From assembly GCA_016176285.1 (NCBI GenBank), contig JACOXM010000001.1, positions 5,812 to 69,811 of the forward strand: a DNA stretch of 64,000 nt, written 5' to 3'. Under the pieces are notes generated by a model. It was not told the DNA's origin. It did not search any database and saw only the letters and a program-made list of their open reading frames with translations. Of this stretch, positions 6,389 through 58,748 are shown in pieces. The first letter of the stretch is position 1. Each line of letters opens with the position of its first letter. The DNA is from Candidatus Giovannonibacteria bacterium (GTDB lineage Bacteria > Patescibacteriota > Minisyncoccia > JACPKW01 > UBA11713). A program made the position numbers and the translations under genes.

Positions 6389-6908
6389 AATGGAAACAAA
6401 AAAAGGATTTACGCTGGTTGAAACTATTGTATCGATAGCGCTTCTAACGCTCGCGATAACCGGGCCGCTTTCCGTGGCCACTTTCGCGCTTAGGTCTTCC
6501 AGTATCTCGGAAAATGAAATTGTCGCATATAATCTTGTTGAAGAGGGGTTAGAATACATAAAAAATAAAATTGATACGAATACTTTTACAAGCGGGGCCC
6601 AGTGGCGGGATGGGCTTTCCGAGTGCGAATCTGGAAATGGCTGCGATATTGATGCGATTTCCTGGGCAATAATATCTTGCCCGGGGGGAATTTGCCCGGT
6701 GCTCCGCAGAAGTTCTTTAACCGGATTATATACACATGCCGCGGCTTCCGCAGATAATACGGATACTATTTTTACGCGCAGGATTTTACTTGATAATGTG
6801 CCCGGAGCGGGAAATGACGAGCAAGAGCTCGCGGTTACTATTTCATGGCCGGAAAGGGATTCCACCCATTCTTTTACGATTACCAGCCATGTTTTTAAGC
6901 GAAGATGA
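6366..6908 (+). CDS. Prepilin-like minor pilin (pseudopilin)
   Basis: N-terminus KKGFTLVETIVSIALLTLAITG with Glu+5. Confidence 0.65.
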   Translation: MDKFQLNKMETKKGFTLVETIVSIALLTLAITGPLSVATFALRSSSISENEIVAYNLVEEGLEYIKNKIDTNTFTSGAQWRDGLSECESGNGCDIDAISWAIISCPGGICPVLRRSSLTGLYTHAAASADNTDTIFTRRILLDNVPGAGNDEQELAVTISWPERDSTHSFTITSHVFKRR

Positions 6909-8028: not shown

Positions 8029-11842
<3,814 letters not shown>

Positions 11843-11846
<4 letters not shown>

Positions 11847-43492: not shown

Positions 43493-44497
43493 ATGACTAA
43501 AAAAACTGATGCAATTAATGAGAAAAAGAGCGGGGTGGAGGCCGCGTTGAAAGAAATACAGGCAAAATACGGCGAGGGAGCCATTATGAAGTTAGGCGAC
43601 ACTCCCAAGGTTGATATTGATGTGATTCCAACCGGCTCCTTGAGCCTGGATTTGGCGCTTGGGGTGGGCGGAGTGCCTAGAGGAAGAATTATCGAGGTGT
43701 ATGGGCCTGAATCTTCCGGAAAAACAACTCTGGCCTTGCACATAGTCTCCGAAGCCCAAAAGAAAGGGGGTTTATGCGCATATGTAGACGCCGAGCACGC
43801 GATGGATCCAGAATATGCAAAAAAAATAGGGGTAAAAATTAACGATCTCTTGATATCGCAGCCTGATACTGGGGAACAGGCGCTTGAAATTGTGGAAAGC
43901 CTTGTGAGGTCCGGCTCAATTGATGTCGTGGTCGTGGACTCAGTCGCGGCACTAACCCCGCAGGCGGAAATTGAAGGGGAAATGGGACAGGCGCACGTAG
44001 GGCTTCAGGCGCGGCTGATGTCGCAAGCTCTTAGGAAACTCACGGCCATTATTGCTAAGTCAAAAACTATCGTAATTTTCATAAACCAGATCCGAATGAA
44101 AATCGGCGTGATGTTTGGAAACCCTGAAACTACCACAGGCGGAAACGCTCTTAAATTTTATTCTTCCGTAAGAATAGAAATTCGCCGCGCCGCGCAATTG
44201 AAAAGAGGAGAGGATATAATAGGGAACCGGGCGAACATTAAAATCACAAAAAATAAAGTTGCTCCGCCTTTCAGGAAGGCCGAGTTGGATATTATGTATA
44301 ACGAGGGGATTTCTTATGAAGGCGACTTGATAAATCTCGGCCTGAAATACGAACTTATAAAAAAATCCGGAGCTTCTCTTTCTTTCGGCGACACTCGATT
44401 GGGACAGGGTTTTGAAAATGCCAAAGAATTTTTGCGCCAGAATTCCAAAATAGCAAATGATTTGGCTAAAAGCATTAAAGAAAAGGCAAAAGCTTAA
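43493..44497 (+). CDS. recA: Recombinase RecA
   Basis: Walker [11 protein letters not shown]1/L2 loops. 334 aa. Canonical RecA blocks ([40 protein letters not shown]). Confidence 0.95.
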
Positions 44498-44533
44498 ATT
44501 CCTAAATTATTATATTCATTTTTAATAATTCTT

Positions 44534-44962
44534 GTGGTTGCCGCGGGGTTTTTTGTTTTTTCGGAAAAAGGATCAATTTCAGAAGAGGAGTTTTCCACGG
44601 GCGTAGTAAAAGTAAATGGACGAGAGCTCAAAGTAAAAATTGCGGATAATGAAAGAAAAAGGGAAGAGGGTCTTCAAAATGTGCCCTCGCTCGACGGATA
44701 CGACGGAATGCTTTTTGTTTTTGAAAAAAGCGCGCCGGTTTCTTTCTGGAATAAGAACACATTTCTTAATCTTGATATAATTTGGATAGAAAATAATAAG
44801 ATCATTGGAATAAGTTACCTGCCGAAAATAGGAACAGATGGGATAAGGATCGTTGATTCCCCGGGTCCGGTTGGCGCGGTGTTGGAGATTCCTTCTGGTA
44901 ATATTGATTCGCTTTCGGAACTAGTTGGCGCTTCTGTTTCTTCCCCGCGTGGATTAAAATAA
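44534..44962 (+). CDS. DUF192-family protein (COG1430-like)
   Basis: GMLFVFEKSAPVSFWNKNTFLNLDIIWIENNKIIGI matches the DUF192 GLMF...FWMKNT..PLDIIF pattern. Confidence 0.5.
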   Translation: MVAAGFFVFSEKGSISEEEFSTGVVKVNGRELKVKIADNERKREEGLQNVPSLDGYDGMLFVFEKSAPVSFWNKNTFLNLDIIWIENNKIIGISYLPKIGTDGIRIVDSPGPVGAVLEIPSGNIDSLSELVGASVSSPRGLK

Positions 44963-44969
44963 ATACAGA

Positions 44970-46100
44970 ATGCGGAGAAAATATGTTTATTTTCTGGGGA
45001 TCGTTTGCATGTTTGGAATTTTTGCATTTTTTTTCAAAACTTACGCGCCCGCAGAGTATATTTCAGCAAAATCAGAGGAATTCGTGGAGGATTTGCCTTT
45101 GCCCCCTTCCCGACATTTAAAAACCCCAATACCCGTTAAGGGGATTTACATGACAAGCTGGGTTGCTGGAACGAAAAATTGGCGGGATAAATTGATAAAT
45201 TTCGTGGATAAAACGGAAATTAATACGATTGTTATAGACGTAAAAGATTATTCAGGAAGGATTTCATTTGAAGTTTCCGACCCCATATTGGTCGAGTTAG
45301 AGTATACGGAAAAAAGGATAAGCGATATAGAAAACTTGATAGAGATTCTGCACAAAAAGAATATATATGTGATAGGCAGAATCTCAGTTTTCCAAGATCC
45401 CCACCTTGCCAAAAAGCGCCCCGACCTCGCGCTTAAAAATAAATCGGGCGAGGTATGGAGTGATAGAAGGGGCCTTATGTGGGTAGACCCCGCATCAAGT
45501 GAAGTTTGGGATATAACTGTGGCGATAAGCAAGGAAGCAGAGAGGGCTGGGTTTGATGAACTAAATTTTGATTACATACGTTTCCCCTCCGATGGAAATA
45601 TTAAAGACGCTCGCTATCCTTTTTGGGACGGAAAAATGAAAAAATCAGAAGTTATTAATAACTTCTTTTCATATTTGAATGAGAACCTCAAAGACATCGG
45701 TGTTCCGATTTCCGCGGACATTTTTGGAATGACAACGGTTACTAGTAATGACTTGAATATTGGACAAGTTTTTGAAGATGCCGTAAAAAACTTCGATTAT
45801 GTCTCGCCGATGGTTTATCCTTCACATTTTGCGAAAGGGTTTATGGGCTACAAGAATCCTTCAGAATTTCCTTACGAAGTAATAAAAAAAGCTTTAGATG
45901 ATGCTCGAGCGAAAACTCTTGCCATTGGACAAGATCCGGAAAAAATTCGCCCGTGGATCCAAGATTTTAATTTAGGGACTAAGTATGATTCTCCGATGAT
46001 TAAAAAGGAAATTAAGGCGGTTTACGATTCCGGATTTTCGAGCTGGCTTTCCTGGGATCCTTCAAACCAGTACACGCCCGAAGCATATTTAAAAGACTAA
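44970..46100 (+). CDS. Putative glycoside-hydrolase-like TIM-barrel protein (DUF4015/COG1306-like), membrane anchored
   Basis: N-terminal TM. KGIYMTSWVAGTKNWRDKLINFVDKTEINTIVIDVKDYSGRISF resembles the conserved start of that family. Confidence 0.45.
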   Translation: MRRKYVYFLGIVCMFGIFAFFFKTYAPAEYISAKSEEFVEDLPLPPSRHLKTPIPVKGIYMTSWVAGTKNWRDKLINFVDKTEINTIVIDVKDYSGRISFEVSDPILVELEYTEKRISDIENLIEILHKKNIYVIGRISVFQDPHLAKKRPDLALKNKSGEVWSDRRGLMWVDPASSEVWDITVAISKEAERAGFDELNFDYIRFPSDGNIKDARYPFWDGKMKKSEVINNFFSYLNENLKDIGVPISADIFGMTTVTSNDLNIGQVFEDAVKNFDYVSPMVYPSHFAKGFMGYKNPSEFPYEVIKKALDDARAKTLAIGQDPEKIRPWIQDFNLGTKYDSPMIKKEIKAVYDSGFSSWLSWDPSNQYTPEAYLKD

Positions 46101-46104
46101 TAAT

Positions 46105-47436
46105 ATGGAGTCAAATTTTTTAGATTTTTCTGAAAGAGCGAAGAGGAAACTAATTATTTCTGCTGGCACGGCGGTATTGTCGATTTTGGCGTTAGTATTT
46201 TTTGATTCAATGCTTTTGACTCATTCCTTTATCGCTTTCTCTTTTGTACTTTTAGGTTGGAGTAATCTCGAGCTGATGAAAGCGATTAAACTTTTTAATG
46301 ATGAAAATTATGAAAGAGAAGCAATTTTATCCAGCCTTTCGGATGGAGTATTGCAATTCGATTCTAAAAGAAGAGTTGTTTTAATGAACTCTAGAGCAGA
46401 GGAGCTTTTAGGTCTGCGAGTTAAGGATTTGGAGGGCTTGGCGATTGTTCCGGATCTCTGGGAGGCAAAGCAATCTTTCAGGGGCCTCGTGGAGGTGATT
46501 TATCCGGAGTTGGCGCCGTTTGCTTCTCAAAAAGGAGGCGACAGATATGGAGGAGACAAGGGCCAGGAAATACATACTTCTTACCCCGAATTGAGGTTAT
46601 TCGTTGTTTCAAAACAAATAAAAAACAATACAGGCAAAACCATCGGAAACGTAAAAATCATAAGGGATATAACCCACGACGAGCTTATTTCCAAAATAAA
46701 ATCTGAGTTCGTTTCGGTTGCCGCGCATCAGTTAAGAACCCCACTTGCAGGTTTAAAGTGGAGTATTAAGCTGATGCTCGACGGGGAAACAGGCCCCGTA
46801 AATGAAAAACAAAAAGAATTTTTGGAAAAAGGCTTTGAATCTTCCGAGCGCATGGTCAAACTTGTGAATGATTTACTCAACGTGGCGAGAATAGAGGAGG
46901 GACGCTTTGGATACGAATTTAAAGAAATTGATTATGTCGCATTCGTGGAAAAACTTGTAAAAAATTATGAGCCGATTGCGAAGAAGAAAAAAATAAATAT
47001 GGTTTTCTCGCAGGTGAAGGATTTAATTCCTCCTCTTTACGCCGATCCGGAAAGAATCCAAATGGCGCTTTCTAATTTAATCGAAAACGCATTGAAGTAC
47101 ACGCTTGAAGGGGAGTTTATTAAAATAATTATTTCACTTGAGGGTGAATATGTAAAAACAATTGTTTCGGATACGGGGGTGGGGATTCCTGCGCTAGAGC
47201 AAGCACGCATTTTTTCAAAATTTTTCAGGGCATCGAATATTATCAAGCTTGAAACGGAGGGAACCGGCTTAGGCCTTTATATTGTCAAGAATATTGTAGA
47301 AAGGCATGGCGGGCACGTTACATTCGTTTCCGAAGAGAAAAGGGGCACGACTTTTACAATATTGCTGCCGATCAAGCGCGGGCTCATTCCTAACCGAGAA
47401 AGACCGATGGCCGAAGAATTTCTGGCGGGGATTTAG
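46105..47436 (+). CDS. Sensor histidine kinase (TM + PAS + HisKA + HATPase_c)
   Basis: H-box SVAAHQLRTPLAGLKW. N box LSNLIENALKYT. G1 DTGVGIP. G2 GTGLGLYIVKNIVERHGG. PAS-like region around SDGVLQFDSKRRVVLMNSRAEELLG. Confidence 0.8.
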   Translation: MESNFLDFSERAKRKLIISAGTAVLSILALVFFDSMLLTHSFIAFSFVLLGWSNLELMKAIKLFNDENYEREAILSSLSDGVLQFDSKRRVVLMNSRAEELLGLRVKDLEGLAIVPDLWEAKQSFRGLVEVIYPELAPFASQKGGDRYGGDKGQEIHTSYPELRLFVVSKQIKNNTGKTIGNVKIIRDITHDELISKIKSEFVSVAAHQLRTPLAGLKWSIKLMLDGETGPVNEKQKEFLEKGFESSERMVKLVNDLLNVARIEEGRFGYEFKEIDYVAFVEKLVKNYEPIAKKKKINMVFSQVKDLIPPLYADPERIQMALSNLIENALKYTLEGEFIKIIISLEGEYVKTIVSDTGVGIPALEQARIFSKFFRASNIIKLETEGTGLGLYIVKNIVERHGGHVTFVSEEKRGTTFTILLPIKRGLIPNRERPMAEEFLAGI

Positions 47437-48392
47437 ATTACTTTCTTTTTTAAAAAATAGATTGGAAAGTATCTTGCGTCAGGATAATCATCTGCACATT
47501 TTTTTTCTTGGATTTTAAAAAAAGGTAATATTGTTTCTTCAAATTCATTCTCAGTCTGGCTTATATAATCCAAATCATAACGAGATCTCTTTATGAAAGC
47601 CTGGAGCGTCCTTCTCAAGATTATTCTTTCTCCTTCTTCTCTGGTCTGATAGTTGGCGAGAATTTCTGCTATTTTTTTTGGACTTGAGGTTTGAGCTTGA
47701 TTATCTCTAAATCCATCACGAAGACGATATAGAAAAGCAAAAAAATTTTCGGAAGAGTAATTTGAGGACATACCCATTAACGCATTATCTACTGTTTTTT
47801 GCGGAGTTTCATCGCTAATGGCGGTGTTAATAATATGGTTTCGAAGTGAAAACGTACCGTCATTTGCAAGTAAGAGTGAAATTTTCTCAAGGAATTTTTC
47901 TTGATTTTTCCTAGGCAGTTGGGTGAATACTAGATCACCGATAATAAAATCAAAATAGTTTTCTTTAAGCGGCAGATCCGTCCATTCTGATTTTATCCAA
48001 ATTTCATTTTCTTGTTTGGCTTTCGAAGCCAATAAAAGTCCACTTTCTATCATAGGAAAAGAAAAATCAGCCACTGTGTAATTTTTTATTTTCGTATCAT
48101 CGAGTAAGTCGCGAATTAACGGTGTCGAACCTAATACCAGCACTTTATTTGGCGGAGATGATAAAATAAATTCACGCCAGATTGAAATAACTTTTTGAGA
48201 GGGACTCGCGGGGGGAGGTATTAGTTTTCTGGATTCGGGCAAGGATTGCGCGTCCCATAATTTTATCATTTTGCGTTTATGCATTTCAGCTTGTCCTGAT
48301 TCTGATTCAATAATGAAATTATGTATTTCAGAAATAGTTCTCGCGTCTAAGGTCTTGATTATTTTTTTTAATATGGATGCGATTAAATTCAT
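47433..48392 (-). CDS. Hypothetical protein, possibly a SAM-dependent methyltransferase-like fold
   Basis: 319 aa. VLVLGSTPLIRDLL and FDFIIGDLVF resemble degenerate MTase motifs I and II. Confidence 0.35.
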   Translation of the reverse strand: MNLIASILKKIIKTLDARTISEIHNFIIESESGQAEMHKRKMIKLWDAQSLPESRKLIPPPASPSQKVISIWREFILSSPPNKVLVLGSTPLIRDLLDDTKIKNYTVADFSFPMIESGLLLASKAKQENEIWIKSEWTDLPLKENYFDFIIGDLVFTQLPRKNQEKFLEKISLLLANDGTFSLRNHIINTAISDETPQKTVDNALMGMSSNYSSENFFAFLYRLRDGFRDNQAQTSSPKKIAEILANYQTREEGERIILRRTLQAFIKRSRYDLDYISQTENEFEETILPFFKIQEKKCADDYPDARYFPIYFLKKKVI

Positions 48393-49783
48393 TTGTTATT
48401 CTAATAAACATGAATAATCAGGATGTATTGATTTCAATGGATGATGCGTTGCCGCCAACCTTGAATTCCTTTAATTTAGCAGGGAATGAATCTTTTTTAA
48501 ACTGGCTTCTGCCCATTGTTGAATCACTAAGGGAAACTGAATATTGGAATAAAGATCATATAGCAAAAATCCAATCCGCTCGTCTAGAAAAGTTATTCCT
48601 GCAATTATCTGGAAATTCCTCTTTTTGGGATAATCATTTCCGACAACATGATGTCAAGCCGAATGCCTCCTCGCCGATCGATGAACTTAAAAAACTGCCG
48701 ATTATAAACAGAGATTGGTTTTTGGCAAAAAAAAATACTTTTGTAATTTCTCCCAATATAAGAGAAGGTTCTTTAAGATATTTCTCTACTAGCGGAACTA
48801 CCGGGAAAGTCCTTGCTGGAGCATTTACACACGGGGAAATTATCGTAAGTTATCTTCCATATTTTTTCAGGCATAGAGTTTTTAATTCAATTGGGGAATT
48901 TATTTCCAGAAAATTTTTTCTTGGGATCGGCAGAGTTCTTACGGAGCAATATAGCTCTCTCGGAGATTCATTTATACTGGATCATTTTGCTTCACTCGAA
49001 AAAAAAGAGATTAGAAACGAGCTGTATAAAAAAATTAAGTCGATATCTCCCGCGATGCTTTGGGCCTACCCAACGACACTTTTAGAATTTGCGACATATT
49101 ATAGGGATGATAATATTCAACTGCCATTATTGGCGGTTCGTACTGGCGGCGAGTATGTTACTAAAAGCCAAAAAGATTTTATTAAAGTTGCGCTTGGGAC
49201 GGAATATATTGATCATTACAGTGCGCGAGAAATCGGGAGCATTGGAACGTCGTGTGATAAAAATCCTACAGAAGGATTTTATCACATAGATCGAGAAAGG
49301 CTTATAGTTGAAGTTTTGGACGATGATGGAGGGGAAGTACCGGGGAATACGGAAGGAAATATAATTATAACGGTCCTTGACCGGACAACATTTCCCTTAA
49401 TTCGATATGCGCTTGGTGATCGAGGTAAAATAGTTTCTTGTGTATGCGGCCGTACTGACGCGCTGATATTTGCGGGAAGAGTTGGGGAATATATTTTGTT
49501 GCCGAGTGGTAAGCGTTTCAGTGTTCTGCAATTTCGGACAATCATTGCGAACTTGGTAAGTTTCCGAAATATTAGAAATTTCCGAATTGTACAAGAATCT
49601 TTAGATACGTTATCAGTTAGTATTTTCTTTAATTACGAACCTTCTTCCAACCAGATCGATTTGTTCGAGAAAATTTTATCCAAAACTCTTTATGATGAAA
49701 TAAAAGTTTCTATTAAAAAAGTTGACGCTGGTTTTTTTAAGGCGGGCAAAAGCAAAGTGTTTGAGAATTTAAAAAGGGGCTGA
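48377..49783 (+). CDS. Adenylate-forming enzyme, phenylacetate-CoA ligase / coenzyme F390 synthetase (PaaK/CapK-like) family, copy 1
   Basis: FSTSGTTGKVLAG AMP-binding motif. WAYPTTLLEF. IRYALGDRGKI...CGR zinc-like motif shared with copy 2. Start may be the ATG at ~48410. Confidence 0.65.
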   Translation: MRLNSFVILINMNNQDVLISMDDALPPTLNSFNLAGNESFLNWLLPIVESLRETEYWNKDHIAKIQSARLEKLFLQLSGNSSFWDNHFRQHDVKPNASSPIDELKKLPIINRDWFLAKKNTFVISPNIREGSLRYFSTSGTTGKVLAGAFTHGEIIVSYLPYFFRHRVFNSIGEFISRKFFLGIGRVLTEQYSSLGDSFILDHFASLEKKEIRNELYKKIKSISPAMLWAYPTTLLEFATYYRDDNIQLPLLAVRTGGEYVTKSQKDFIKVALGTEYIDHYSAREIGSIGTSCDKNPTEGFYHIDRERLIVEVLDDDGGEVPGNTEGNIIITVLDRTTFPLIRYALGDRGKIVSCVCGRTDALIFAGRVGEYILLPSGKRFSVLQFRTIIANLVSFRNIRNFRIVQESLDTLSVSIFFNYEPSSNQIDLFEKILSKTLYDEIKVSIKKVDAGFFKAGKSKVFENLKRG

Positions 49784-49821
49784 CTTTGCCAGCCCCTTTT
49801 TTGGAACCTTTTATGTTTCGG

Positions 49822-50460
49822 TTATTGTATTGCTGCAATCTGCGCTGGAGGCAGTTCCTGTAAATTGAGCCTGTAAACGGGCCCGACTGTTTTAACCTCC
49901 ATCTTCACTACGCATTTTGCCACAGGGCTATACCAATAAGTATAGATTTTTTGTTTTGGTTGGCCGAGCGCCTCTTCGCGACTGATTTTGTATGCTCTAA
50001 AAGTTCCGGCCGGAACGGCGACCTCTTCTTGTCCTAATACAGTAACTTTGGCTTTCACCGTTGACCCTCTCCGATCGGTACCCTCTTTTGAAAAAAACTC
50101 GCCTTCCCAAGTCGTCCCCTCCACCAGGGGAAATTTAAACATAGGAACTTTTACTTCGAACGGTTCTGGGGTAAGAAATACAAAGAAACTTCTCCTTACC
50201 CTGCCCAGGGGCAAATATTCAGCGCCTCTTTCTCCGTTTTCTACGGTGAAAACTGTAAATTCCTTGCCGTCGAATACAATGTCGTACGTGCCAGACGGAA
50301 GAACATCAGTGGCGCTAATTGTTGATTTATGCGAGTAGTTAATTCGCCAACTATCCCCGGAATTGTAAACCGGTTCTTTAATCTCCTCTGCTAAAACGGA
50401 GGAGAAAGTTAGAGAAATAAAATAAACGATTACCAACAGCAATAATTTGTTAATGTTCAT
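49822..50460 (-). CDS. Hypothetical secreted protein
   Basis: 212 aa with a signal peptide (MNINKLLLLVIVYFISLTFSSVLA). No family recognised. Confidence 0.4.
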   Translation of the reverse strand: MNINKLLLLVIVYFISLTFSSVLAEEIKEPVYNSGDSWRINYSHKSTISATDVLPSGTYDIVFDGKEFTVFTVENGERGAEYLPLGRVRRSFFVFLTPEPFEVKVPMFKFPLVEGTTWEGEFFSKEGTDRRGSTVKAKVTVLGQEEVAVPAGTFRAYKISREEALGQPKQKIYTYWYSPVAKCVVKMEVKTVGPVYRLNLQELPPAQIAAIQ

Positions 50461-50535
50461 AACTACCTCCTAGTGTTTTATACCATAAAAAACTATTTTT
50501 TCAAGCAAAGATCTATAATGTTATAGTATTTTATT

Positions 50536-51801
50536 ATGTATAGACGAAATCCAAACGATTGGCTTATATCCCCTGAACGGTTTTTTGGCAACGATATTCG
50601 TTTTGGAAATTTGCTTGGCAATAAAAGCTTCATCGAGTCATTGATAGAGTATTCTCGTATAGTAAAAGAGTTTCAATTCTGGAAAAAGGAAAAAATTGAG
50701 GAAATCCAAAATACACGGCTAAACAATCTATTAGAATCTATTAATAAAAAATACGAAGGGGGCAATATTATAACAATTCATTCAAGTGGTACATCGGGAA
50801 TACAAAAAAAGATTCTTATAGACGAGAGGGAGGGGATTATTTCCTGGTTCCCTTGCCGCTTAACCAACCCTGCATTTAATTTTGATGAAAAACTAATAAA
50901 AAATATTTTTAATAGAAAATTTGTGATTTGTCTTGGCGGCAGTACAAGGGTATGGTTAAAAGATTTTATGTATTTACTGCGAACAACTCCAGTTGATCTT
51001 ATTGATAAAATTAACCGCGAACTGATATACGAAAAAATTAACGAGGTTCACCCAGCTTTTGTAATCGGCCCAGGCTCATCCGTTTCTGCTTTGGCAAGAA
51101 AAATGGATGAAGATGGGTTTGATTTATCGCACTTACTTGCATTGGAATTAACTACGGAGCCAATATTATCGGAAGAGAAATCCTTTATAAATAATTTAAA
51201 AATCCCTCTATTGAATACATTTTCTTCTGCGGAAGCCGGACCGATAGGCTTTGAATGCCCTAATAATCCGGAACGGTTTCATTTGTTTGCCCAAAGAATG
51301 ATGCTAGAGGTTATAAATGAAAATGGATTGCCAGCTAGGGATGGAGATGAAGGTGAATTAGTCATAACAGTATTAGACCGAAGGGTGATGCCGATCATTC
51401 GCTACGCGCTGGGTGATAGAGGAAAAATTATTTCTGATAGCTGTCCCTGCGGGAGGTCACTTCCATTATTTGAGTTGAGTAGCCGTCGAGGCGATAAATT
51501 AAAATTATCAAGTGGCAGGGAAGTGCCAAGTTCGCTTCTGTATATGAGTTTAAAAAGGGCGGAAATAGGTAAAGTGGCAAGGGCTTTTCAGATTCGCCAG
51601 AATGCAGTGGATCAAATTGAACTTCTTATTGTTCCGTCCCGAAAAAAAAGGGCGAGGATTACGGAGGAAACTGAGTTGAAATTCCGTCTTGCTCTAACGG
51701 AATTTTTCTACAACGAGCGGATGCTTATAGAAGTGAGAAAAGTGGATGCAATCCCGGTTTCATCTTCGGGTAAAACTTTATTTTTTGTACCACTTCAATG
51801 A
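50536..51801 (+). CDS. PaaK/F390-synthetase-like adenylate-forming enzyme, copy 2
   Basis: HSSGTSGIQKK motif. ELVITVLDRRVMPIIRYALGDRGKIISDSCPCGR parallels copy 1. Confidence 0.65.
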   Translation: MYRRNPNDWLISPERFFGNDIRFGNLLGNKSFIESLIEYSRIVKEFQFWKKEKIEEIQNTRLNNLLESINKKYEGGNIITIHSSGTSGIQKKILIDEREGIISWFPCRLTNPAFNFDEKLIKNIFNRKFVICLGGSTRVWLKDFMYLLRTTPVDLIDKINRELIYEKINEVHPAFVIGPGSSVSALARKMDEDGFDLSHLLALELTTEPILSEEKSFINNLKIPLLNTFSSAEAGPIGFECPNNPERFHLFAQRMMLEVINENGLPARDGDEGELVITVLDRRVMPIIRYALGDRGKIISDSCPCGRSLPLFELSSRRGDKLKLSSGREVPSSLLYMSLKRAEIGKVARAFQIRQNAVDQIELLIVPSRKKRARITEETELKFRLALTEFFYNERMLIEVRKVDAIPVSSSGKTLFFVPLQ

Positions 51802-53058
51802 CGCGAAAAATTCATCGATTATTTTTTTTGTTATGTGCGGCATGAAGATAATTGTATAAAATAGTTTTTTTTCTCCGTCGTGTAAAAGCCAGCAGGGTTT
51901 TAAACCAAATCTTTTTTCGGTTTGGGGATCGAGTTGAGAATTTTTCAATTTGTTAATATGAAATGCCAAAATATTAATCGACGGATGTGTAATAAATATA
52001 AAAGGCGGCAAATATTCGTTTGCCATAGAAGCCTCTATAAAATATTTTTTTAAATTTAGTTCCGATTCAACTATTTTCTTAAAGCCAGACTTTCCTAATA
52101 GCATTATTATACTCCAACAACCCGCGGCTATTGCCGCGGGTCTGGAGCCAGAAAGGGTGTTGTCTTTGCCGAGCCCCAAATACGGAACCGGCCGCTCTAT
52201 AAAATTTTGCAGTCCCTTCCTGCATAAAAAGACACCGGCATTATGTGGAACGAGCCCGGTCTTATGCATATCGAGTGAAATTGACTGCAAAGATGAATAT
52301 CTGAAGTCTAAAATTTTTTCAGAAACAAAAGGATAAACAAGGCCGCCAATCGCTGCATCCATATGAACGTAAGTTTTTATTTTTAGTTTCGATTGGAAAT
52401 CATTTATTACCGCATCGATTTCGTTTAACGGATCTACCGTTCCAGTGCCGCTGTAACCAAGCGTTAACGCGATTAAAAAATTATTATATCCTTCTTGATA
52501 AAGGAGCTTGATTGTTTCTTTTAATTTTTCACCATCCATCCCATACTCGGTATCACAAGGAACGTCAACGACTTTATTTATATTGAGAAGATCTGCGGCT
52601 TTCTCGATTGAGTAATGTGTGAGAGGAGTTTTTAATAAACATAGTTTTCCTCCGTTTTCCTGAAGCATATTTCTACCAATCCAAAGTCCTGTTATATTTC
52701 CTTCCGTTCCCCCCTGAGTTAAATATCCATCTCCTTTTTCCAATCCAAAAAGATTCGAAAGCATTGAAATAACCTCAGCCTCTAGATATTGAAGCCCGCT
52801 AGCATATTCATTACTGGTATGAGTTCCAATATTATTCCTGTTAAACGGCAGAAATTTCGTTATTGCTTCAATTGCTAAGGGATGCGGATCGGTGCTGTAA
52901 ATCCTTAACCCACGCATTGAATACGGCTTCATTTTTTTTGCGAAATTTTCAAGAATATCAAGGATATTTTCTTTCGAGGCGCCCGTTTCTGGAAAATTTT
53001 TGAAAGCCATAATAATCAATAATATATAATATTTTGATACAATAGGATATGCACCCAT
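51778..53058 (-). CDS. Group II pyridoxal-phosphate-dependent decarboxylase (GadB/MfnA-like)
   Basis: 426 aa. PLP-lysine motif SLDMHKTGL. ITGLWIGRN, HMDAAIGG and DPHPLA... blocks typical of the family. Confidence 0.75.
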   Translation of the reverse strand: MGAYPIVSKYYILLIIMAFKNFPETGASKENILDILENFAKKMKPYSMRGLRIYSTDPHPLAIEAITKFLPFNRNNIGTHTSNEYASGLQYLEAEVISMLSNLFGLEKGDGYLTQGGTEGNITGLWIGRNMLQENGGKLCLLKTPLTHYSIEKAADLLNINKVVDVPCDTEYGMDGEKLKETIKLLYQEGYNNFLIALTLGYSGTGTVDPLNEIDAVINDFQSKLKIKTYVHMDAAIGGLVYPFVSEKILDFRYSSLQSISLDMHKTGLVPHNAGVFLCRKGLQNFIERPVPYLGLGKDNTLSGSRPAAIAAGCWSIIMLLGKSGFKKIVESELNLKKYFIEASMANEYLPPFIFITHPSINILAFHINKLKNSQLDPQTEKRFGLKPCWLLHDGEKKLFYTIIFMPHITKKIIDEFFASLKWYKK

Positions 53059-53762
53059 TTTTTGAATTTTTCAATCAAAACCGGCCATATATATCAAAAG
53101 ATTCCTTGGAGTGGCCTTCTTCCTGGAAGATTGTTGACTATAAAACGTATCCGCGCTTGCCGCAAATAGCACTGCCGAAACCAAATTTAAGGGATGCTAG
53201 CTTAGAAAGCGCGATTATAAATCGAAAATCCGAACGAGAATTTTCTGGAGATTCGATAAGTTTATCAGAACTTTCAGCTTTGCTTTTTTTTGGAGCGGGC
53301 ATTGTTAAAAATGGAGAAAATAATTTTTTTCACAGAAGATCCCATCCGTCCGGAGGGGCAAGGTTTCCAATAGAAACTTATTTTGCGGCTTTAAATGTCG
53401 ACGGACTTAAAAATGGTATTTACCACTACAATGTGTTAAATCATGCCGCAGAGTTTTTACTTGATGCGGATAGAGATATTATTGGCAAACTTTCAGTTTA
53501 TGAATTTGTAAAAAAAGCTGCGCTGGTTATTATTTTTACAATGATACCTGAACGTTCTTCGAGAAAATATGGAAATTTTGCTTTGAAGGTTGGCTTAATC
53601 GAAGCCGGGCATATTGCAGAAAATATGTACTTAGTGGCTTCCGCGTTGAAATTGAAAGGAAGCGCAGTGGGGAATATAAGTGACAACGGCGTCGTAGAGA
53701 AATTACTTGATATAGATAATTCAAGCGAAATCGCTTTTTACATGCTTGCCTATGGAAAATAA
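53049..53762 (+). CDS. SagB-type (McbC-like) FMN dehydrogenase
   Basis: INRKSEREFSGDSISLSELSALL and HPSGGARFPIETY match the RRSxRxF...PSAGALYP signature of the SagB/ThcOx family. Confidence 0.8.
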   Translation: MHPFFEFFNQNRPYISKDSLEWPSSWKIVDYKTYPRLPQIALPKPNLRDASLESAIINRKSEREFSGDSISLSELSALLFFGAGIVKNGENNFFHRRSHPSGGARFPIETYFAALNVDGLKNGIYHYNVLNHAAEFLLDADRDIIGKLSVYEFVKKAALVIIFTMIPERSSRKYGNFALKVGLIEAGHIAENMYLVASALKLKGSAVGNISDNGVVEKLLDIDNSSEIAFYMLAYGK

Positions 53763-55284
53763 ACATAAATCTCATGAATCTACTGTTGAATTAGGTCCGG
53801 TTACCAGGGCCAGGCAGTGGATTTCGGGTTTGTTGGATGGCGGTTTGTCAACGACGGAAAAAATTATCGCAAAGATTTCTATACTTTTTTTGGAATTTTT
53901 AGAAGAAATTTTTGGTCAAAGTTTTTATGTTAAATCCAAATTTGAAAATGATTTTTTTACTTTACCAAATTCAAAAATAGCGAATTTAGCTGCGAGCCTA
54001 AAAAAAGATGGATTTATTAAATCTTTGAATATTCGCCGTACTTTTCCGGATGAACCTCGCGCGATTTTAGCGTGGGCTGATTTTGGAGAATTAATTTTAA
54101 AATCAGATACTAGTGCTTCAAGGTATGCTGAAGTTAACTTTTTAGGAGGGGTGGATTTTAAAAATACGGATAAAGCTGCGTTGCGCTGTTTAGGGGAAGC
54201 TGTGGAGCGCACATGCCTCGGCTTTTATAAAAAGAAAGATTTGGTTTTTGGAACATTTAAAGAGCTTAAAAACAAAGCCATTGATCCGAAGGAATTTGTC
54301 GCTTTTTCAAAGGAACAGCTTGCTTCGGAAAAATTCAGGCATTGCAGGTTCGATGATCAAACTCGCTTTGGCTGGGTTTGGGGTAGATCGTTGATTTCCG
54401 GCAAAGAAATTCTTGTTCCGGCGCAGCTTGCTTATGTTCCTTATAAATATGAAAAAGGAGAGCCGGTAATCCGCAATACTATTAGTACTGGGGCGGCGGC
54501 ATACACTGATTATTATGAAACTATTTACCGGGCAACTTGCGAGGTTATTGAAAGGGACGCTTTCATTATTCACTACTTAAATAAACTCGCCCCGCCTGTT
54601 TTGGATTTAGAAAACTTTCACGATAAAGAACTACAGGAAATAAACGCTAAATTCAAAAGATACAATTTGGAATTATATGTGCTTGACGTGACAACGGATA
54701 TCCCTGCGCCAACTTACGTTAGTTTGATTATAGATAGAACCGGCGTCGGGCCAGCGGTTACAGTATCAAATAAAACCGATCTAAATATTAAGAAAGCAAT
54801 CAAGGGCTCAATAGAGGGATGCCTACGTATATATTCGGGGTATAGGTGGAAAATGGAAAAATTACTTGACGTTAATAAAATTCCTGAAAAATGGGAACAA
54901 ATTGAAAGTTTGTCGGACAGATGTTTTTTTTGGGGGCAGGCGAAGATGCTCCCGGAGATAGAATTTTTCATCAAGGGGCCGAAGAAAATGATAAATGCTG
55001 AATTGTTAGATCTTGGTAGCAGGGAAAGACTTGATTTAGTCCTTGAATATTTTAAGAAAAATAACATGGAAGTTATTGCCGTTGATCTAACCATCCCTGA
55101 GGCGAGAAAAAATGGATTTTATGTTTCTAAGGTTTTAATTCCGAAGCTTCAGCCGCTGCATTTGTCGGAAAGGCACCGTTACTTTGGGGGTGAGCGGTTA
55201 TATCAGCTTCCCATAAAATTGAATTATTTAAAGCAACCATTGCGAGAGGAAGAATTAAATCAAATACCACAACCTTTTGCATAA
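53746..55284 (+). CDS. YcaO-domain cyclodehydratase
   Basis: LGEAVERTC and ISTGAAAYTDYYETIYRATCEVIERDAF are canonical YcaO motifs. 512 aa. Confidence 0.85.
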   Translation: MPMENKHKSHESTVELGPVTRARQWISGLLDGGLSTTEKIIAKISILFLEFLEEIFGQSFYVKSKFENDFFTLPNSKIANLAASLKKDGFIKSLNIRRTFPDEPRAILAWADFGELILKSDTSASRYAEVNFLGGVDFKNTDKAALRCLGEAVERTCLGFYKKKDLVFGTFKELKNKAIDPKEFVAFSKEQLASEKFRHCRFDDQTRFGWVWGRSLISGKEILVPAQLAYVPYKYEKGEPVIRNTISTGAAAYTDYYETIYRATCEVIERDAFIIHYLNKLAPPVLDLENFHDKELQEINAKFKRYNLELYVLDVTTDIPAPTYVSLIIDRTGVGPAVTVSNKTDLNIKKAIKGSIEGCLRIYSGYRWKMEKLLDVNKIPEKWEQIESLSDRCFFWGQAKMLPEIEFFIKGPKKMINAELLDLGSRERLDLVLEYFKKNNMEVIAVDLTIPEARKNGFYVSKVLIPKLQPLHLSERHRYFGGERLYQLPIKLNYLKQPLREEELNQIPQPFA

Positions 55285-55312
55285 GAAGAGATCATTGTAT
55301 AATTAATTATAT

Positions 55313-55642
55313 ATGGCAAGGGCGACGAAGGTTATTACATTATCTAAAAAAATATCTTTGGTTTTGCTTCTCCTGCCGCTTATGTTTTTTGTCGTTATTG
55401 CAAAAGCCTTTTTAAAATTTGGCGGAATGAAATCTTTAAGCTCTTTAAATAATGATCATATTATAAATAAGGCTAATGCTGATGTCGGCGGCGATTGTGC
55501 TAGTAGCTGTGACTCCGGCAATGAAAACAGTGCCAGCGGTTGTGATTCCAGTGGTACCGGTAGTGGCGATTGCGGCACTGGCGGCTGTGGTGGAGATAGT
55601 GGAGATACCGGAGGAGACAGTGGCGGGGATAGTGGAAAGTGA
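55313..55642 (+). CDS. Candidate TOMM/RiPP precursor peptide with Gly/Ser/Cys/Asp-rich core (alternative start ATG 55427 gives a 71 aa peptide)
   Basis: C-terminus DCASSCDSGNENSASGCDSSGTGSGDCGTGGCGGDSGDTGGDSGGDSGK preceded by a leader ending VGG. Lies immediately downstream of ycaO. Confidence 0.5.
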   Translation: MARATKVITLSKKISLVLLLLPLMFFVVIAKAFLKFGGMKSLSSLNNDHIINKANADVGGDCASSCDSGNENSASGCDSSGTGSGDCGTGGCGGDSGDTGGDSGGDSGK

Positions 55643-55649
55643 TAAATTT

Positions 55650-56771
55650 ATGAAAAAACAATATATTTATCTGGCGATTGGCTTAGCGGTTTTTGTTCTC
55701 GTAGTCATTTATTTTTTTATTCCCAGGGAAAATGCTGTAGATGTTTTTAATAAGGAGTATAAGGAAGCGTTAAAATCCTTGTATGCCGAAAAAAATAATG
55801 AAGTTTTTTCAAAAATAGAAAAATTAATTGGCAGCGCCCCAACACCAGAGGCCGAAGCGAAAGCAAAAATTTTAACAGCTTTTGCTTCGAACGACAATAG
55901 CAAATCCATATCTTTATTTAAGGAAGTCGCAGGGGATTCTACATACCCATCTTTTCTCCGAGCCGATGCGGCGGCTGCTATGGCTGATTTTTTTATGTTA
56001 GGGTCGCATGGATCTAGCACGCTTGCCTCACAAATTTTTTCAAGTGAACCATACGTTTCCTTTGCAATTACCAAGTCAGGCAGAAAAAATTATTCTTTGG
56101 GCGCTCGAAAATTATATGAATATGCATCTTCCATTTATGTGATTCCGTGGGCAGAATATCGCATTGCCGAATGGTACCTAAAGAATGCCATCCTTTCGAA
56201 GTTGTATAAAATTAAGACCGTGGATACGGATGAAAATTATACGACAAAAGCTGAAGCACATATTCTAAAGGGGGATTTGGCTCTGGAAAAGTATAATAGG
56301 GAAGGAGGAATAAAATTATATTCTGGATACGCGAACTGGATTAAGGGTTTTGACCAAGCAATGCTTTGGGAACTGAAGGGGCAAGAAGTCAATAGAAATG
56401 AGGCCGAAACTATGTTTAAAGCTGCGCTTAATGATTTGGATGACGGGAAGTTTGGAAAATTTGCGATTGGTCAAAAAATTTGGGCAAATTTTCAGTATTC
56501 TTCGTTTGTAGCCAGGACATATGGAGTGAACAGAAAGGACGATATATTAAAACTTAATTCTTATGTCACGACGGACAGTCACAGATATGTTGATGAGGAA
56601 AAAAAACTGCTTTACGGTTTACATAAATATATGTTTCGTCTTGGATCAATTGCAGTTACTAACATTCAGGAAAGGTACGATTATGAAAGTGCAAAGGTAA
56701 TTGCGAGAGTTGATCCCAACTTCAGAGATTATCTGAGGCAGCTCGGCTGGAAAGATGAAGTTTTTAAGTAA
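55650..56771 (+). CDS. Hypothetical membrane-anchored protein (373 aa from ATG 55650)
   Basis: MKKQYIYLAIGLAVFVLVVIYFFIP TM anchor. The ORF-track start at 55476 overlaps the precursor in another frame and is unlikely. Confidence 0.4.
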   Translation: MKKQYIYLAIGLAVFVLVVIYFFIPRENAVDVFNKEYKEALKSLYAEKNNEVFSKIEKLIGSAPTPEAEAKAKILTAFASNDNSKSISLFKEVAGDSTYPSFLRADAAAAMADFFMLGSHGSSTLASQIFSSEPYVSFAITKSGRKNYSLGARKLYEYASSIYVIPWAEYRIAEWYLKNAILSKLYKIKTVDTDENYTTKAEAHILKGDLALEKYNREGGIKLYSGYANWIKGFDQAMLWELKGQEVNRNEAETMFKAALNDLDDGKFGKFAIGQKIWANFQYSSFVARTYGVNRKDDILKLNSYVTTDSHRYVDEEKKLLYGLHKYMFRLGSIAVTNIQERYDYESAKVIARVDPNFRDYLRQLGWKDEVFK

Positions 56772-56923
56772 TCCGTGAAAGGACGCGACATTTTTATTGC
56801 AATTGTCGCTTTTTTATTATTTTCGTTCTTTTTTTTGAAAACGATTTAGCCAAGCTGGCTTGGGGAAAATATCACAATCCTAAAATTGCTCTAATTCTTG
56901 ATAGATCGGATGTAAAGCTTGCG

Positions 56924-57565
56924 ATGCAAATCGGCAATTTTTATTTTAACGGCGGCGCTTACGATTTAGATATAGCCGAGAAAGGATTCAAAAAAGCTCT
57001 TGAAATAGATTCTAAAATATTGTGGGGGCATTATCAGATGGCTCGTGTTTACTTTGTAAAAGGGGAGAGAGCTAGGGCGCTTGATGAAATAAATAAGGAA
57101 TTTGAAGCAGTGCCGCAGAATTTTCGCGCTTATTATGTGCGTGCTTTGATACATGCTTATGACAAAAATTTTAGCGAATCGGAAATGGATTTTCGCAGTT
57201 TTTTAGTTTGGGCTCCGAAGGAATGGGCGGGATATAATGATCTTGCGTGGGTTTTAGCCGAACAGAAGAAATATAAAAAAGCGAAAGAGGTGTTAGAAAC
57301 TGCATTTCGTGAAGTTCAACAAGCTAATCAAAATCCTTGGCTCTGGAATTCTCTGGGCGTTACCCAATTAAATTTAAAGGAGTATGGGAGTGCGGTAACT
57401 TCTTTTAATAGAGCTCAGAAGTATGCCTCAAAGCTAACTTTAATGGAGTGGGCAAGAGCTTATCCCGGAAATAATCCAAATGAGCTTGAATCCGGACTTG
57501 CGGTCTTCCGCGCCGCCATCAATGAAAATTTAGAGCGAGCTGTTGATAATTCATCTGGGATTTGA
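56924..57565 (+). CDS. TPR-repeat protein (N-terminus probably extends upstream; see frameshift note)
   Basis: Repeated A..A...Y..A TPR helices. The in-frame region upstream to 56768 plus a GTG-initiated TM ORF at 56775 suggest a longer gene. Confidence 0.6.
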   Translation: MQIGNFYFNGGAYDLDIAEKGFKKALEIDSKILWGHYQMARVYFVKGERARALDEINKEFEAVPQNFRAYYVRALIHAYDKNFSESEMDFRSFLVWAPKEWAGYNDLAWVLAEQKKYKKAKEVLETAFREVQQANQNPWLWNSLGVTQLNLKEYGSAVTSFNRAQKYASKLTLMEWARAYPGNNPNELESGLAVFRAAINENLERAVDNSSGI

Positions 57566-57596: not shown

Positions 57597-58748
57597 ATGA
57601 GTGAAAAAAAGAAATATTTTCTCTCTAGTTGTATTTTAACGGCATCATTGATTGTTTCTTTTTCTATGGTGCAGCAAGGCAGTTCTGTGAGTAATGCTTT
57701 CTGGGGGGAATCAAAGTGGATTGAGAGCGTTGGCGGCGGGTTGATTGCTCCCGCATGTGGATCTTCAACTATCGGCATTACTTGCGTTGCAAACACACCC
57801 AGCATAGATTTTACATGGATTGCGGATGATATGGATTTTTCCGCAGGGGATAGCGTCGTTATATCTATCAACGGTGTAGGTGTTATTGCGAGCGGACTTC
57901 CAGCTTCTGGCGTTTTTACTTGGGGAGGAGCTTCTTCTAATTCTACATACACTTATGAAATTCGATATAAGTCAGTTGAGTTTGGAGACAATCATCTCTT
58001 AAAATCTGAATCATTCTCAACGCCAAATTGCAATCCCGATCCCATAGGATGGCATGATGCTTCGAGCTGTGCTGATACGCATGGCTGGACGTGCGATCCC
58101 AGTAATTACAGCCAGCCCATTGACGTGCATTTCTATGCTGATGGCCCCGCGGGGTCAGGAACATTCTTGGGATCTGTAACGACTGGCCAATCGCGTCCCG
58201 ATGTTCCCGCGGCCGGATTTTGCGATGGAAACGCAAATGTCGGTTATTCATTTGCGACCCCTAATTCATTAAAGGACGGTCTTAACCATACGATTTATAC
58301 TTACGCAATTAACACTCCTGCCGGAAATAATCCTCTTTTACAAGGAAGTCCGAGGACGATTAATTGCCCGGCGCCCCCAGTGACCCCGGATTATATTCTC
58401 AACGCTGATCCGAATGGAATTTTTGCAAATATAAGCAGTTCGGGGCCTTCAATTTCAAGTAAAACAAAAATAACAGTCGGACCCATAAATGGTTTTGATA
58501 AAAAAGTTGATCTTTCTAGCAATGTTGCTTCGGTTATTTCCGGAGCGGGTGGGGTTTTTACTCCAAAGGATCGGTTGAATAAAAATGAATATTCCGATGG
58601 AACATTTTTCTACGTTTCAGTTCCTCCTGGAACTGCAGCGGGGAGCTATAATATTACAATTCAGGGGGACGACGGAATATTATCCCCGAGGTCAGTTTCA
58701 GTCATTTTAAATGTGGAGCTATTGGATTCGACTTTCAAGGAAGAATAG
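57597..58748 (+). CDS. Large secreted hypothetical protein with C-terminal ...FKEE domain
   Basis: GGAGGT Shine-Dalgarno. Signal-anchor. C-terminal ~100 aa domain paralogous to the end of the 60110-62407 protein. Confidence 0.45.
   Translation: MSEKKKYFLSSCILTASLIVSFSMVQQGSSVSNAFWGESKWIESVGGGLIAPACGSSTIGITCVANTPSIDFTWIADDMDFSAGDSVVISINGVGVIASGLPASGVFTWGGASSNSTYTYEIRYKSVEFGDNHLLKSESFSTPNCNPDPIGWHDASSCADTHGWTCDPSNYSQPIDVHFYADGPAGSGTFLGSVTTGQSRPDVPAAGFCDGNANVGYSFATPNSLKDGLNHTIYTYAINTPAGNNPLLQGSPRTINCPAPPVTPDYILNADPNGIFANISSSGPSISSKTKITVGPINGFDKKVDLSSNVASVISGAGGVFTPKDRLNKNEYSDGTFFYVSVPPGTAAGSYNITIQGDDGILSPRSVSVILNVELLDSTFKEE

Follow-up and report, generated by a model that had tools for sequence, protein, structure and literature searches.

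A gene cluster for an azol(in)e-containing peptide that is made by the ribosome and modified after translation (RiPP) lies in a 64-kb stretch of a Candidatus Giovannonibacteria contig (the window, 64,000 nt analysed as a whole), from a lineage of the Candidate Phyla Radiation (CPR). It comprises genes for a methyltransferase, two PaaK/F390-synthetase-like adenylate-forming enzymes, a secreted DUF3108-like protein, a pyridoxal-phosphate (PLP)-dependent decarboxylase, a SagB-type dehydrogenase, a YcaO cyclodehydratase, a 109-aa precursor peptide and two membrane-anchored proteins with tetratricopeptide-repeat (TPR) or TPR-like regions. All of these genes were found at the coordinates of Table 1 when the open reading frames (ORFs) of the window were checked. 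The YcaO is identical to a protein deposited at NCBI under 'Candidatus Giovannonibacteria bacterium', which agrees with the CPR-type genome proposed in an earlier, sequence-only reading of this DNA. The locus is a genuine cluster of the linear azol(in)e-containing peptide (LAP) or thiazole/oxazole-modified microcin (TOMM) type, and the full reading, with a CPR-specific architecture and the mechanism proposed below, is given a probability of roughly 0.6.

Cyclodehydratase, dehydrogenase and gene order

Pfam and NCBIfam scans took in the cluster genes (44970-57565) and the other window genes that were scanned. The YcaO protein matched PF02624 (E 1e-52) and passed the SagD-family TOMM cyclodehydratase model TIGR03604 with 270.7 bits against a cutoff of 219.25, and its neighbour passed TIGR03605 (108.4 bits, cutoff 78.4) and matched PF00881 (E 1e-13). 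The pair is supported at sequence level as a predicted ATP-dependent cyclodehydratase and FMN-dependent dehydrogenase. The 3' end of the SagB gene overlaps the start of ycaO by 17 nt if the TTG at 53746 is used, or by 11 nt from the ATG at 53752 (the start adopted at NCBI), and the two genes are probably translationally coupled. A Lys-Tyr motif distinguishes SagB/McbC-type FMN dehydrogenases, and the window protein carries R-K-Y-G (SSRKYGNF). Both ExxER motifs of the YcaO are invariant in a 30-sequence alignment (E151/E154/R155 and E266/E269/R270), and its C-terminus reads ...NQIPQPFA where the consensus of the 30 sequences ends PHPFL, a Pro-rich ending at the level of sequence; azoline-forming YcaOs reportedly carry a Pro-rich C-terminal motif of the PxPxP type.

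Among solved proteins, MusD, TruD and LynD were the best relatives of the YcaO by sequence (phmmer E 1e-20 to 2e-17). Foldseek matched its AF2 model (pLDDT 89.6) best with LynD (4v1v, E 3e-25, 464 columns), and thioamidation YcaOs, the Escherichia coli YcaO (TM-score 0.44) and McbD were all further away, McbD (6gri_D, E 6e-12) being the most distant of the azoline-forming matches. The thioamidation/kinase models were failed, with 69 bits against 365 for TIGR03266 (McrA thioamidation) and 35 against 75.65 for TIGR00702, and the Pfam scan found no TfuA among the cluster proteins. These results uphold the YcaO and SagB/McbC-type assignments of the sequence-only reading, including the dehydrogenase stop overlapping the ycaO start, and they place the YcaO with the azoline formers LynD, MusD and TruD instead of with TfuA-associated or ribosomal-S12-type enzymes.

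For comparison, 140 non-redundant related loci were used, of which 31 encode a precursor whose leader contains a transmembrane (TM) helix, as in the window (TM-type loci), and 109 do not. SagB adjoins ycaO in 127 of the 140. A Saccharibacteria locus (L007, 2833-8672, on the same contig as L094) holds two tandem YcaO-SagB pairs with a TM-type precursor between them (5673-6044). Directly downstream of SagB, 6 of the 31 TM-type loci encode a fusion of a phosphoribosyltransferase with a PQQ-like beta-propeller (~547 aa), which is absent from the window (L029 8725-10371, L032 12131-13756, L033 7390-9051, L039 12244-13887; also L137, L143 and L162). The remainder of the window consists of housekeeping genes, among them ligA, gatA, pheT, gyrB (23133-25178), secD, rpoB, ftsK and recA.

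Table 1. Features of the azol(in)e peptide locus, with positions counted from the first letter of the window
Feature	Position	Strand	Remarks
SAM-dependent methyltransferase, 319 aa	47433-48392	-	PF08241 28.3 bits vs cutoff 21.2; probable tailoring enzyme
PaaK/F390-synthetase-like adenylate-forming enzyme 1 (PaaK1), 468 aa	48377-49783	+	NCBIfam matches, below family cutoffs
Secreted DUF3108-like protein, 212 aa, typical signal peptide	49822-50460	-	PF11306 26.4 bits vs cutoff 26
PaaK-like adenylate-forming enzyme 2 (PaaK2), 421 aa	50536-51801	+	NCBIfam E 1e-25, below family cutoffs
Group II PLP-dependent amino-acid decarboxylase (MfnA/Tyr/Asp/His-decarboxylase-like), 426 aa	51778-53058	-	PF00282 E 2e-23
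SagB-type FMN-dependent azoline dehydrogenase, 237 aa	53049-53762	+	TIGR03605
YcaO cyclodehydratase, 512 aa (510 aa from ATG 53752)	53746-55284	+	TIGR03604
Precursor ORF, 109 aa	55313-55642	+	Conserved small ORF
Precursor 'leader', residues 1-56	55313-55480	+	Basic N-terminus, TM helix (~residues 14-34), linker, A54-N55-A56 junction
Precursor core, residues 57-109 (53 aa), with stop codon	55481-55642	+	DVGGDCASSCDSGNENSASGCDSSGTGSGDCGTGGCGGDSGDTGGDSGGDSGK
TM373, 373 aa, N-terminal TM helix and TPR-like alpha-solenoid	55650-56771	+	No Pfam/NCBIfam family; proposed precursor-handling protein
Membrane-anchored TPR protein	56775-57565 (ORF as sequenced 56924-57565)	+	TPR Pfam matches

The precursor, its membrane-anchored neighbours and the absent partner protein

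The ORF that starts 28 nt after ycaO matches nothing in Pfam or NCBIfam, and it is supported as a conserved precursor by comparison with related loci. It was aligned by phmmer with a homologue in L003 (E 2e-11), and a leader hidden Markov model (HMM) built without the window sequence retrieved this ORF (E 5e-6) and nothing else in the window. Small ORFs of the same type, frequently missed by gene callers, occur near ycaO and often directly beside it in 31 of the 140 loci, a set compiled from HMM matches, a rule-based finder and manual inspection and therefore partly hand-curated. The core contains 5 Cys, 14 Ser/Thr, 18 Gly, 10 Asp/Glu and 1 Lys, with a net charge of about -9, and its one Ser-Cys site could give a fused bis-heterocycle. 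The small precursor with a Cys/Ser/Gly/Asp-rich core that had been picked out from the sequence is in this way confirmed by its conservation.

Statistics on the precursor family were taken from 28 non-redundant members, which share a basic N-terminus, a hydrophobic helix of ~20 residues, a linker, a junction of the form [AVS]-x-A/[DQ] (the slash marking the junction) and the core. The junction, KANA/DVGG in the window, is the most conserved feature of the family. The pooled cores consist of 32% Gly, 17% Ser+Thr, 15% Asp+Glu and 12% Cys, with only 0.8% Lys+Arg. Mean net charges of +2.75 before and +0.68 after the helix (the window n-region has +4) favour a predicted N-in orientation, and the distance from helix to junction has a median of 22 aa. 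In a Sec signal peptide, a positive n-region and a hydrophobic h-region are followed by A-x-A within 3-7 residues of the h-region; the junction here looks signal-peptidase-like in its residues, yet it is not a textbook signal-peptidase site.

Several variations were seen in this family. In three loci, L061 (9077-9754, minus strand), L004 (10211 to the contig end) and L168 (2285-3040, with a weak Pfam Intein_splicing match), the C-terminus of the precursor continues into a fused Hint/intein-like domain (C[FL]xxGT ... VHN), and autoprocessing may release or activate the core. The TM helix with the A-x-A-D leader module also precedes a ~400-aa domain of unknown function in place of the short core (L028 13176-14675; L098 2111-3550), and the leader may, given these fusions, be a general targeting or processing signal. 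In the window, a promoter-like site (TTTGCA-16 nt-TATAAT, 55298-55313 region) ends 9 nt before the precursor ATG, which has no evident Shine-Dalgarno sequence, and the precursor mRNA may be leaderless or nearly so. The case for this is weak, as the promoter/terminator scan stayed at chance level (32 against 30.7 expected; 11 against 9.8 expected).

Two genes for membrane-anchored proteins follow the precursor. A 431-aa ORF considered earlier (55476-56771) overlaps the precursor, and the true start of TM373 is almost certainly the ATG at 55650 (MKKQYIYL...), 7 nt past the precursor stop. TM373 found nothing significant in a sequence-profile search of the PDB (best E 0.09), and its predicted fold is a TPR-like solenoid; hhalign related it weakly to the TPR family (56% probability). 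Its own family comprises 667 cluster representatives at 50% identity, with ~360-400 aa among the best 150 listed. A full HMMER search was needed to see this, as word-indexed searches gave only 2 and then 4 proteins. The TPR protein, encoded just outside the range of the sequence-only reading, is the most strongly co-conserved accessory, with orthologues (E 1e-30 to 1e-75) in 19 of the 140 loci, nearly all with TM-type precursors. Its N-terminal TM helix is read from the GTG at 56775, out of frame with the main ORF (ATG 56924), and similarity to the L085 orthologue extends upstream of that ATG. A run of eight T (56829-56836) marks the apparent frameshift, where one added T would join the frames into a protein of 264 aa that, as its orthologues do, has an N-terminal TM helix; the frameshift is either an assembly error or genuine.

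The gene after the TPR gene encodes a secreted protein (57597-58748) whose N-terminal motif, ...KWIE..G....APACGSS, is common to large Cys-rich secreted proteins in the same position in L001 and L028. A DsbA-like thioredoxin gene (62429-63169) follows ~5 kb downstream of the TPR gene, as in L001, and in L167 such a gene lies inside the operon. Both may belong to the same envelope system or merely reflect conserved gene order. Some related loci encode another accessory, the 'cluster 12' proteins, which combine a TM helix, a degenerate papain-like fold and a TPR region and of which the window has none. Kinship of TM373 with cluster 12 was rejected (hhalign probability 4%), as was a role of cluster 12 as the leader protease, the weak Peptidase_C70/C39-like matches lying at or below cutoff with no conserved Cys and one His only. 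By sequence, these proteins look like pseudo-peptidases.

Separation of the TM-type loci from the other 109 is seen in their accessory genes. A TPR, TM373 or cluster 12 protein is encoded in 21 of the 31 TM-type loci against 2 of the 109 others (Fisher p = 2e-15), and an M16 peptidase in none of the former against 25 of the latter. Other CPR/DPANN-type loci have a classical look, with a short soluble leader encoded upstream of ycaO and followed by SagB, M16 peptidase and ABC genes.

The precursor, TM373 and TPR genes also occur without ycaO. In L169 (3560-6472), a TM373 homologue, a TPR protein and a same-type precursor (TM helix, ...EARADVP and a Cys-rich core) adjoin an MbnB/TglH/ChrH enzyme (PF05114 E 1e-73), and in L167 (3100-9301) genes for an Asp/Arg beta-hydroxylase, AMMECR1 and DsbA neighbour such a precursor with TM373 and TPR homologues; neither contig contains a ycaO. 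These two are among six further TM373 members that were looked up, and the other four lie beside YcaO and a small ORF. As the same set adjoins MbnB-like and hydroxylase genes, the three genes behave as a chassis that is not tied to one modifying enzyme.

LAP clusters hold an E1-like/ThiF-like partner of the cyclodehydratase in most cases (PMC7136475). Neither Pfam nor NCBIfam matched such a protein among the cluster genes or the other scanned genes of the window, and jackhmmer searches with the E1-like domains of related fused or adjacent proteins came up empty, both across the 64-kb window (best E > 1) and in its nearest CPR loci. The same searches recovered partners in 35 of the 109 loci that lack a TM-type precursor, against 0 of the 31 that encode one. 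In more distant relatives from Nitrospinaceae, cyanobacteria, haloarchaea and Bathyarchaeota, an E1-like gene is fused to ycaO or lies just upstream of it. This part of the classical LAP definition is thus lacking, so the 'complete' YcaO/dehydrogenase/precursor set of the sequence-only reading is complete in its three named components and incomplete in the classical partner. By these searches the cluster appears to lack an E1-like protein and a RiPP recognition element (RRE), although it may encode a very divergent small RRE protein. No dedicated protease or ABC exporter was found in the cluster either.

The YcaO itself was considered as the carrier of the RRE. An RRE within its N-terminal 140 residues was rejected, since the beta-alpha-alpha-beta... 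order is unfit and the greater part of this stretch can be aligned with the LynD YcaO domain; no RRE-like domain is evident in the model over the 464 columns of that alignment. The only part that the LynD YcaO domain leaves unexplained is a ~50-residue N-terminal extension of the YcaOs from TM-type loci: a median of 133 residues precedes their Pfam domain, as opposed to 80 for the remaining YcaOs (Mann-Whitney p 9e-9).

The methyltransferase, ligase and decarboxylase genes

Upstream of SagB lies a block of five genes for the methyltransferase, PaaK1, the DUF3108-like protein, PaaK2 and the decarboxylase. PaaK1 has an intact TSGTTGK motif, as read from the sequence, and its NCBIfam matches were to the DVU_1553-family ligase (E 5e-26) and PaaK (E 3e-22). 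The nearest solved structures to PaaK2 are PaaK (4r1l), AjiA1 (6wuq) and a PaaK-like ligase (6siw). With best E-values of 1e-25 to 1e-26, both stayed below family cutoffs and missed the equivalog cutoffs for PaaK (TIGR02155, 53.5 and 31.9 bits against 646) and F390 synthetase (TIGR03335, 20.7 against 458.7). They are assigned from these scores to a PaaK-like branch of adenylate-forming enzymes and not as orthologues of PaaK or F390 synthetase. The decarboxylase reached 202.8 bits with TIGR03812 (MfnA-like), below the cutoff of 299.4, and its best PDB match was an L-Tyr/L-Asp decarboxylase (6m4y). The sequence-only reading had named two PaaK/F390-synthetase-like enzymes, a group II PLP decarboxylase and a methyltransferase-like protein; all four assignments hold at superfamily level only.

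Homologues of the block recur around related ycaO genes. The methyltransferase has homologues close to ycaO in L086 (two copies, with E 2e-60 and 5e-60), L085, L028/L154 and L141, and orthologues of PaaK2 occur in L001 (6e-67), L003 (2e-66), L032 (5e-70) and L086 (6e-73). In L032, 19 nt separate the precursor from the PaaK2 gene downstream of it, both on one strand, and DUF3108-like homologues adjoin the PaaK2-like gene in L001, L003 and L032. L085 has a non-homologous PLP decarboxylase of the Orn/DAP/Arg type beside a PaaK-like gene, and its precursor lies between methyltransferase genes.

The fullest counterpart is L086, whose YcaO is 46% identical to that of the window. It keeps both methyltransferase copies, PaaK1 (E 1e-83), PaaK2, the decarboxylase (E 8e-148), YcaO, SagB, a precursor that contains …NKARADVTSCSDGGCDDCDHDSDNEC… and TM373. 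A secreted 212-aa protein (6044-6682) holds the position of the DUF3108-like protein, with no sequence match to it at E <= 1e-5. Because these genes recur together in L086, the block probably belongs to the peptide cluster and tailors the peptide, as the sequence-only reading had assumed when it counted them as members. The arrangements in L086, L032 and L085 together argue that decarboxylase, ligase and methyltransferase work with the peptide system. Over the whole comparison set, a PaaK-like gene is present in 8 of the 31 TM-type loci against 4 of the 109 others (p 7e-4).

Proposed pathway, alternatives and known systems

The proposed pathway begins with azoline formation by YcaO at the five Cys of the core and possibly at some Ser/Thr, followed by oxidation of the azolines to azoles by SagB. 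That azoles form on the 109-aa peptide has good support from homology and from conservation, and this step is considered highly probable. The YcaO would work without an E1-like/RRE partner and may use its locus-specific N-terminal extension instead. The leader would serve as a membrane-targeting or export signal, so that the acidic modified core is exported or displayed and cut free at A-x-A/D, a release that would need neither a dedicated protease nor an ABC pump. TM373 and the TPR protein, anchored in the membrane, would bind the conserved leader and handle the peptide there. The odds of these three intermediate steps are judged to be even. Finally, the decarboxylase would make an amine, the adenylating ligases would attach it to carboxylates of the peptide (on Asp side chains or at the C-terminus) and the methyltransferase would methylate the product. 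This tailoring chemistry is proposed tentatively and is somewhat more doubtful than the membrane steps. Partner independence, export, A-x-A/D cleavage, the roles of the TPR-type proteins and the tailoring reactions are put forward as hypotheses, and the product might act as an antibiotic, in metal binding or in interaction with a host.

A number of observations weigh against this pathway. The co-occurrence statistics ignore the shared ancestry of the loci. Partner-independent azoline formation is unusual for SagD-family YcaOs, most of which need a partner (PMC7136475). The A-x-A motif lies ~22 residues past the helix, far beyond a normal signal-peptidase I site, and 2-5 Lys/Arg usually follow the helix, which makes both topology and protease uncertain. 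Since the ATP and FMN on which YcaO and SagB depend are cytoplasmic, any export must come after modification. TM373 and the TPR protein carry no catalytic signature and could lie on either side of the membrane. With regard to tailoring, the PaaK-like genes reach only the 8 TM-type loci counted above, the group II decarboxylase is confined to the window and L086, and several loci set these genes beside glycopolymer genes (GT2, Glyphos_transf, NTP_transferase), so that the block may serve another pathway.

Two alternatives each accept the azole chemistry. The block of five genes could be a mere neighbour of YcaO, SagB, precursor and TPR genes and serve a separate pathway, such as amide decoration of an envelope glycopolymer or synthesis of a small N-acyl amine. 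PaaK-like genes are indeed absent from 23 of the 31 TM-type loci, the L001 protein bears a weak CapK_C label and lies among GT2, sulfatase and NTP-transferase genes, and glycosyl/glycerophosphotransferase and NTP-transferase genes adjoin the loci L003 and L028. A literature search found no PaaK-type ligase in LAP pathways, and we know of no precedent for one. A separate pathway is a serious rival, the more so as several loci abut glycosyltransferase genes, and is nevertheless held to be unlikely in view of the whole block kept beside ycaO in L086 despite a YcaO only 46% identical, the position of the L032 ligase gene, the L085 precursor between methyltransferase genes and beside a PaaK-like gene with another decarboxylase type, and the enrichment of PaaK-like genes in TM-type loci. 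A slightly less probable alternative is that the peptide is never released, and that a helix-anchored, modified, acidic and azole-bearing peptide acts at the surface or membrane in metal binding or host contact, with TM373 and the TPR protein as its partners and not as export or processing aids. Such anchoring would suit a hydrophobic segment of TM length with a distant junction, Asp/Gly-rich cores, a cluster without a protease, DsbA-like genes that recur nearby (window, L001 and L167) and a chassis shared with MbnB-like enzymes (L169), known products of which bind copper. It fits less well with the junction, the most conserved feature of the family and one that resembles a cleavage site, or with the self-cleaving Hint domain fused to the core in some relatives, which suggests processing.

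The other two alternatives reject the peptide or give it a familiar target, and both are highly improbable. If the small ORF were not the substrate, the true target of YcaO would be a different protein, which it might thioamidate, or one of ribosomal-protein type; no partner or RRE ties it to the leader, and L001 has a YcaO without SagB. Against this stand the SagD-family model passed and the McrA-thioamidation model failed, the missing TfuA, the SagB gene overlapping ycaO, and the same-type ORF with a Cys/Ser/Thr-rich core near ycaO in 31 loci. The sequence-only reading had also suggested, from the core composition and from gyrB in the same window, a likeness to gyrase-targeting microcin B17; the locus would then make a secreted antibiotic of that kind. 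A Gly/Ser/Cys-rich core with one Ser-Cys site and gyrB within the window are what speaks for it, and the suggestion found no support. McbD is the weakest azoline-forming structural match to the YcaO, Pfam and NCBIfam found no equivalents of McbB, of the McbG pentapeptide immunity protein or of the McbEF pump among the cluster proteins, and a TldD/E-type protease is lacking as well. The core is strongly negative, unlike that of microcin B17, and gyrB is an ordinary housekeeping copy between pheT and secD, 28 kb from the cluster.

The preferred reading, a LAP/TOMM-type cluster of CPR-specific design, can be extended beyond the window, in a form that is admittedly unlikely as a whole. In this extension, the precursor, TM373 and the TPR protein would be a CPR-specific, enzyme-independent RiPP chassis that replaces the RRE/E1 partner, leader protease and ABC exporter, and that is reused with YcaO/SagB in the window, with an MbnB-like enzyme in L169 and with a hydroxylase and AMMECR1 in L167. 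Some relatives would add a self-cleaving Hint domain, the window subgroup would cap carboxylates with an amine by means of PaaK-like ligases, decarboxylase and methyltransferase, and the product could be an episymbiont's peptide that is delivered to the surface, binds metal or is directed at a host.

YcaO/SagB clusters in CPR genomes are already known, and the new part is the architecture. Sharrar et al. 2020 (mBio, PMC7298704) described a LAP cluster in a Microgenomates genome (Microgenomates_ANG_785) and 110 more in 93 CPR genomes, 51 of which were Parcubacteria; a nitroreductase gene adjoined ycaO in 89 clusters. The statement of the sequence-only reading that such genomes are not normally associated with clusters of this kind is outdated in the light of these 110. 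The window cluster resembles them in its CPR genome, its YcaO with an adjoining nitroreductase/SagB gene and its nearby Cys/Ser-rich precursor. Their exemplar is resembled by the classical-looking CPR/DPANN loci, and it has a peptidase, like the loci with an M16 peptidase here ('class B') and unlike the window cluster. The paper mentions no membrane-anchored leader, TPR-type accessories, missing E1-like partner or PaaK/decarboxylase/methyltransferase block. Literature searches, in which subscription journals were poorly covered, found no description of a leader with a TM helix, of the module of TM373 and TPR proteins, of the absent partner or of the block with PaaK-like and decarboxylase genes, and nothing relevant beyond Sharrar et al. 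2020 on MbnB or RiPP precursors in CPR.

Classical LAP systems (microcin B17 McbABCD, streptolysin S SagABCD, plantazolicin, klebsazolicin and phazolicin) share YcaO, a SagB/McbC-type dehydrogenase and a Gly/Ser/Cys-rich core with the window, and plantazolicin offers precedent for a tailoring methyltransferase (PMC7136475). Unlike them, the window cluster has no E1-like C protein (McbB/SagC), ThiF-like F protein, leader protease, ABC exporter or immunity gene, and it combines a leader holding a TM helix with a strongly acidic core. The cyanobactin and muscoride heterocyclases LynD, TruD/PatD and MusD, closest to the window YcaO domain in structure and sequence, are 650-780-aa fusions with a leader-binding N-terminal RRE and an E1-like region, whereas the window protein consists of the YcaO domain with a short N-terminal extension of its own. 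Bottromycin YcaOs are not known to come with a SagB-type dehydrogenase. The standalone enzymes BotC/BotCD act without a partner protein (PMC7136475); they are divergent YcaOs that form a single thiazoline or macroamidine on a precursor with a C-terminal follower and not a TM leader. The MbnB/TglH/ChrH (DUF692) systems, methanobactin among them, share the chassis through L169, and the window has YcaO/SagB and no DUF692 enzyme. The precursors known for methanobactin lack a TM helix and are short, cytoplasmic peptides.

Bacteria of the CPR occur in abundance, carry tiny genomes and for the most part live attached to other microbes, and how they compete or communicate with their hosts is largely unknown. 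Their azole-peptide clusters have been counted so far and never dissected. The design outlined here is streamlined: in place of a leader-binding partner, dedicated protease and pump it has a leader anchored in the membrane and two TPR-type membrane proteins, which belong to sizeable families, one of them outside Pfam and NCBIfam. If the proposal is true, the locus would provide a natural case of partner-independent azoline formation, a RiPP route through general secretion instead of dedicated export and possibly a new tailoring reaction, amine capping of carboxylates not being known in azole peptides. It also supplies small testable constructs, a 109-aa peptide with two enzymes.

The base composition of the window is uneven. 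Two neighbouring ORFs (596 and 572 aa) with no Pfam match at E <= 1e-10 lie in a stretch of ~0.35 G+C (10056-13540), and the G+C content is 0.37-0.39 over the RiPP cluster (44000-57000) against 0.42-0.47 in the housekeeping stretch at ~20-44 kb.

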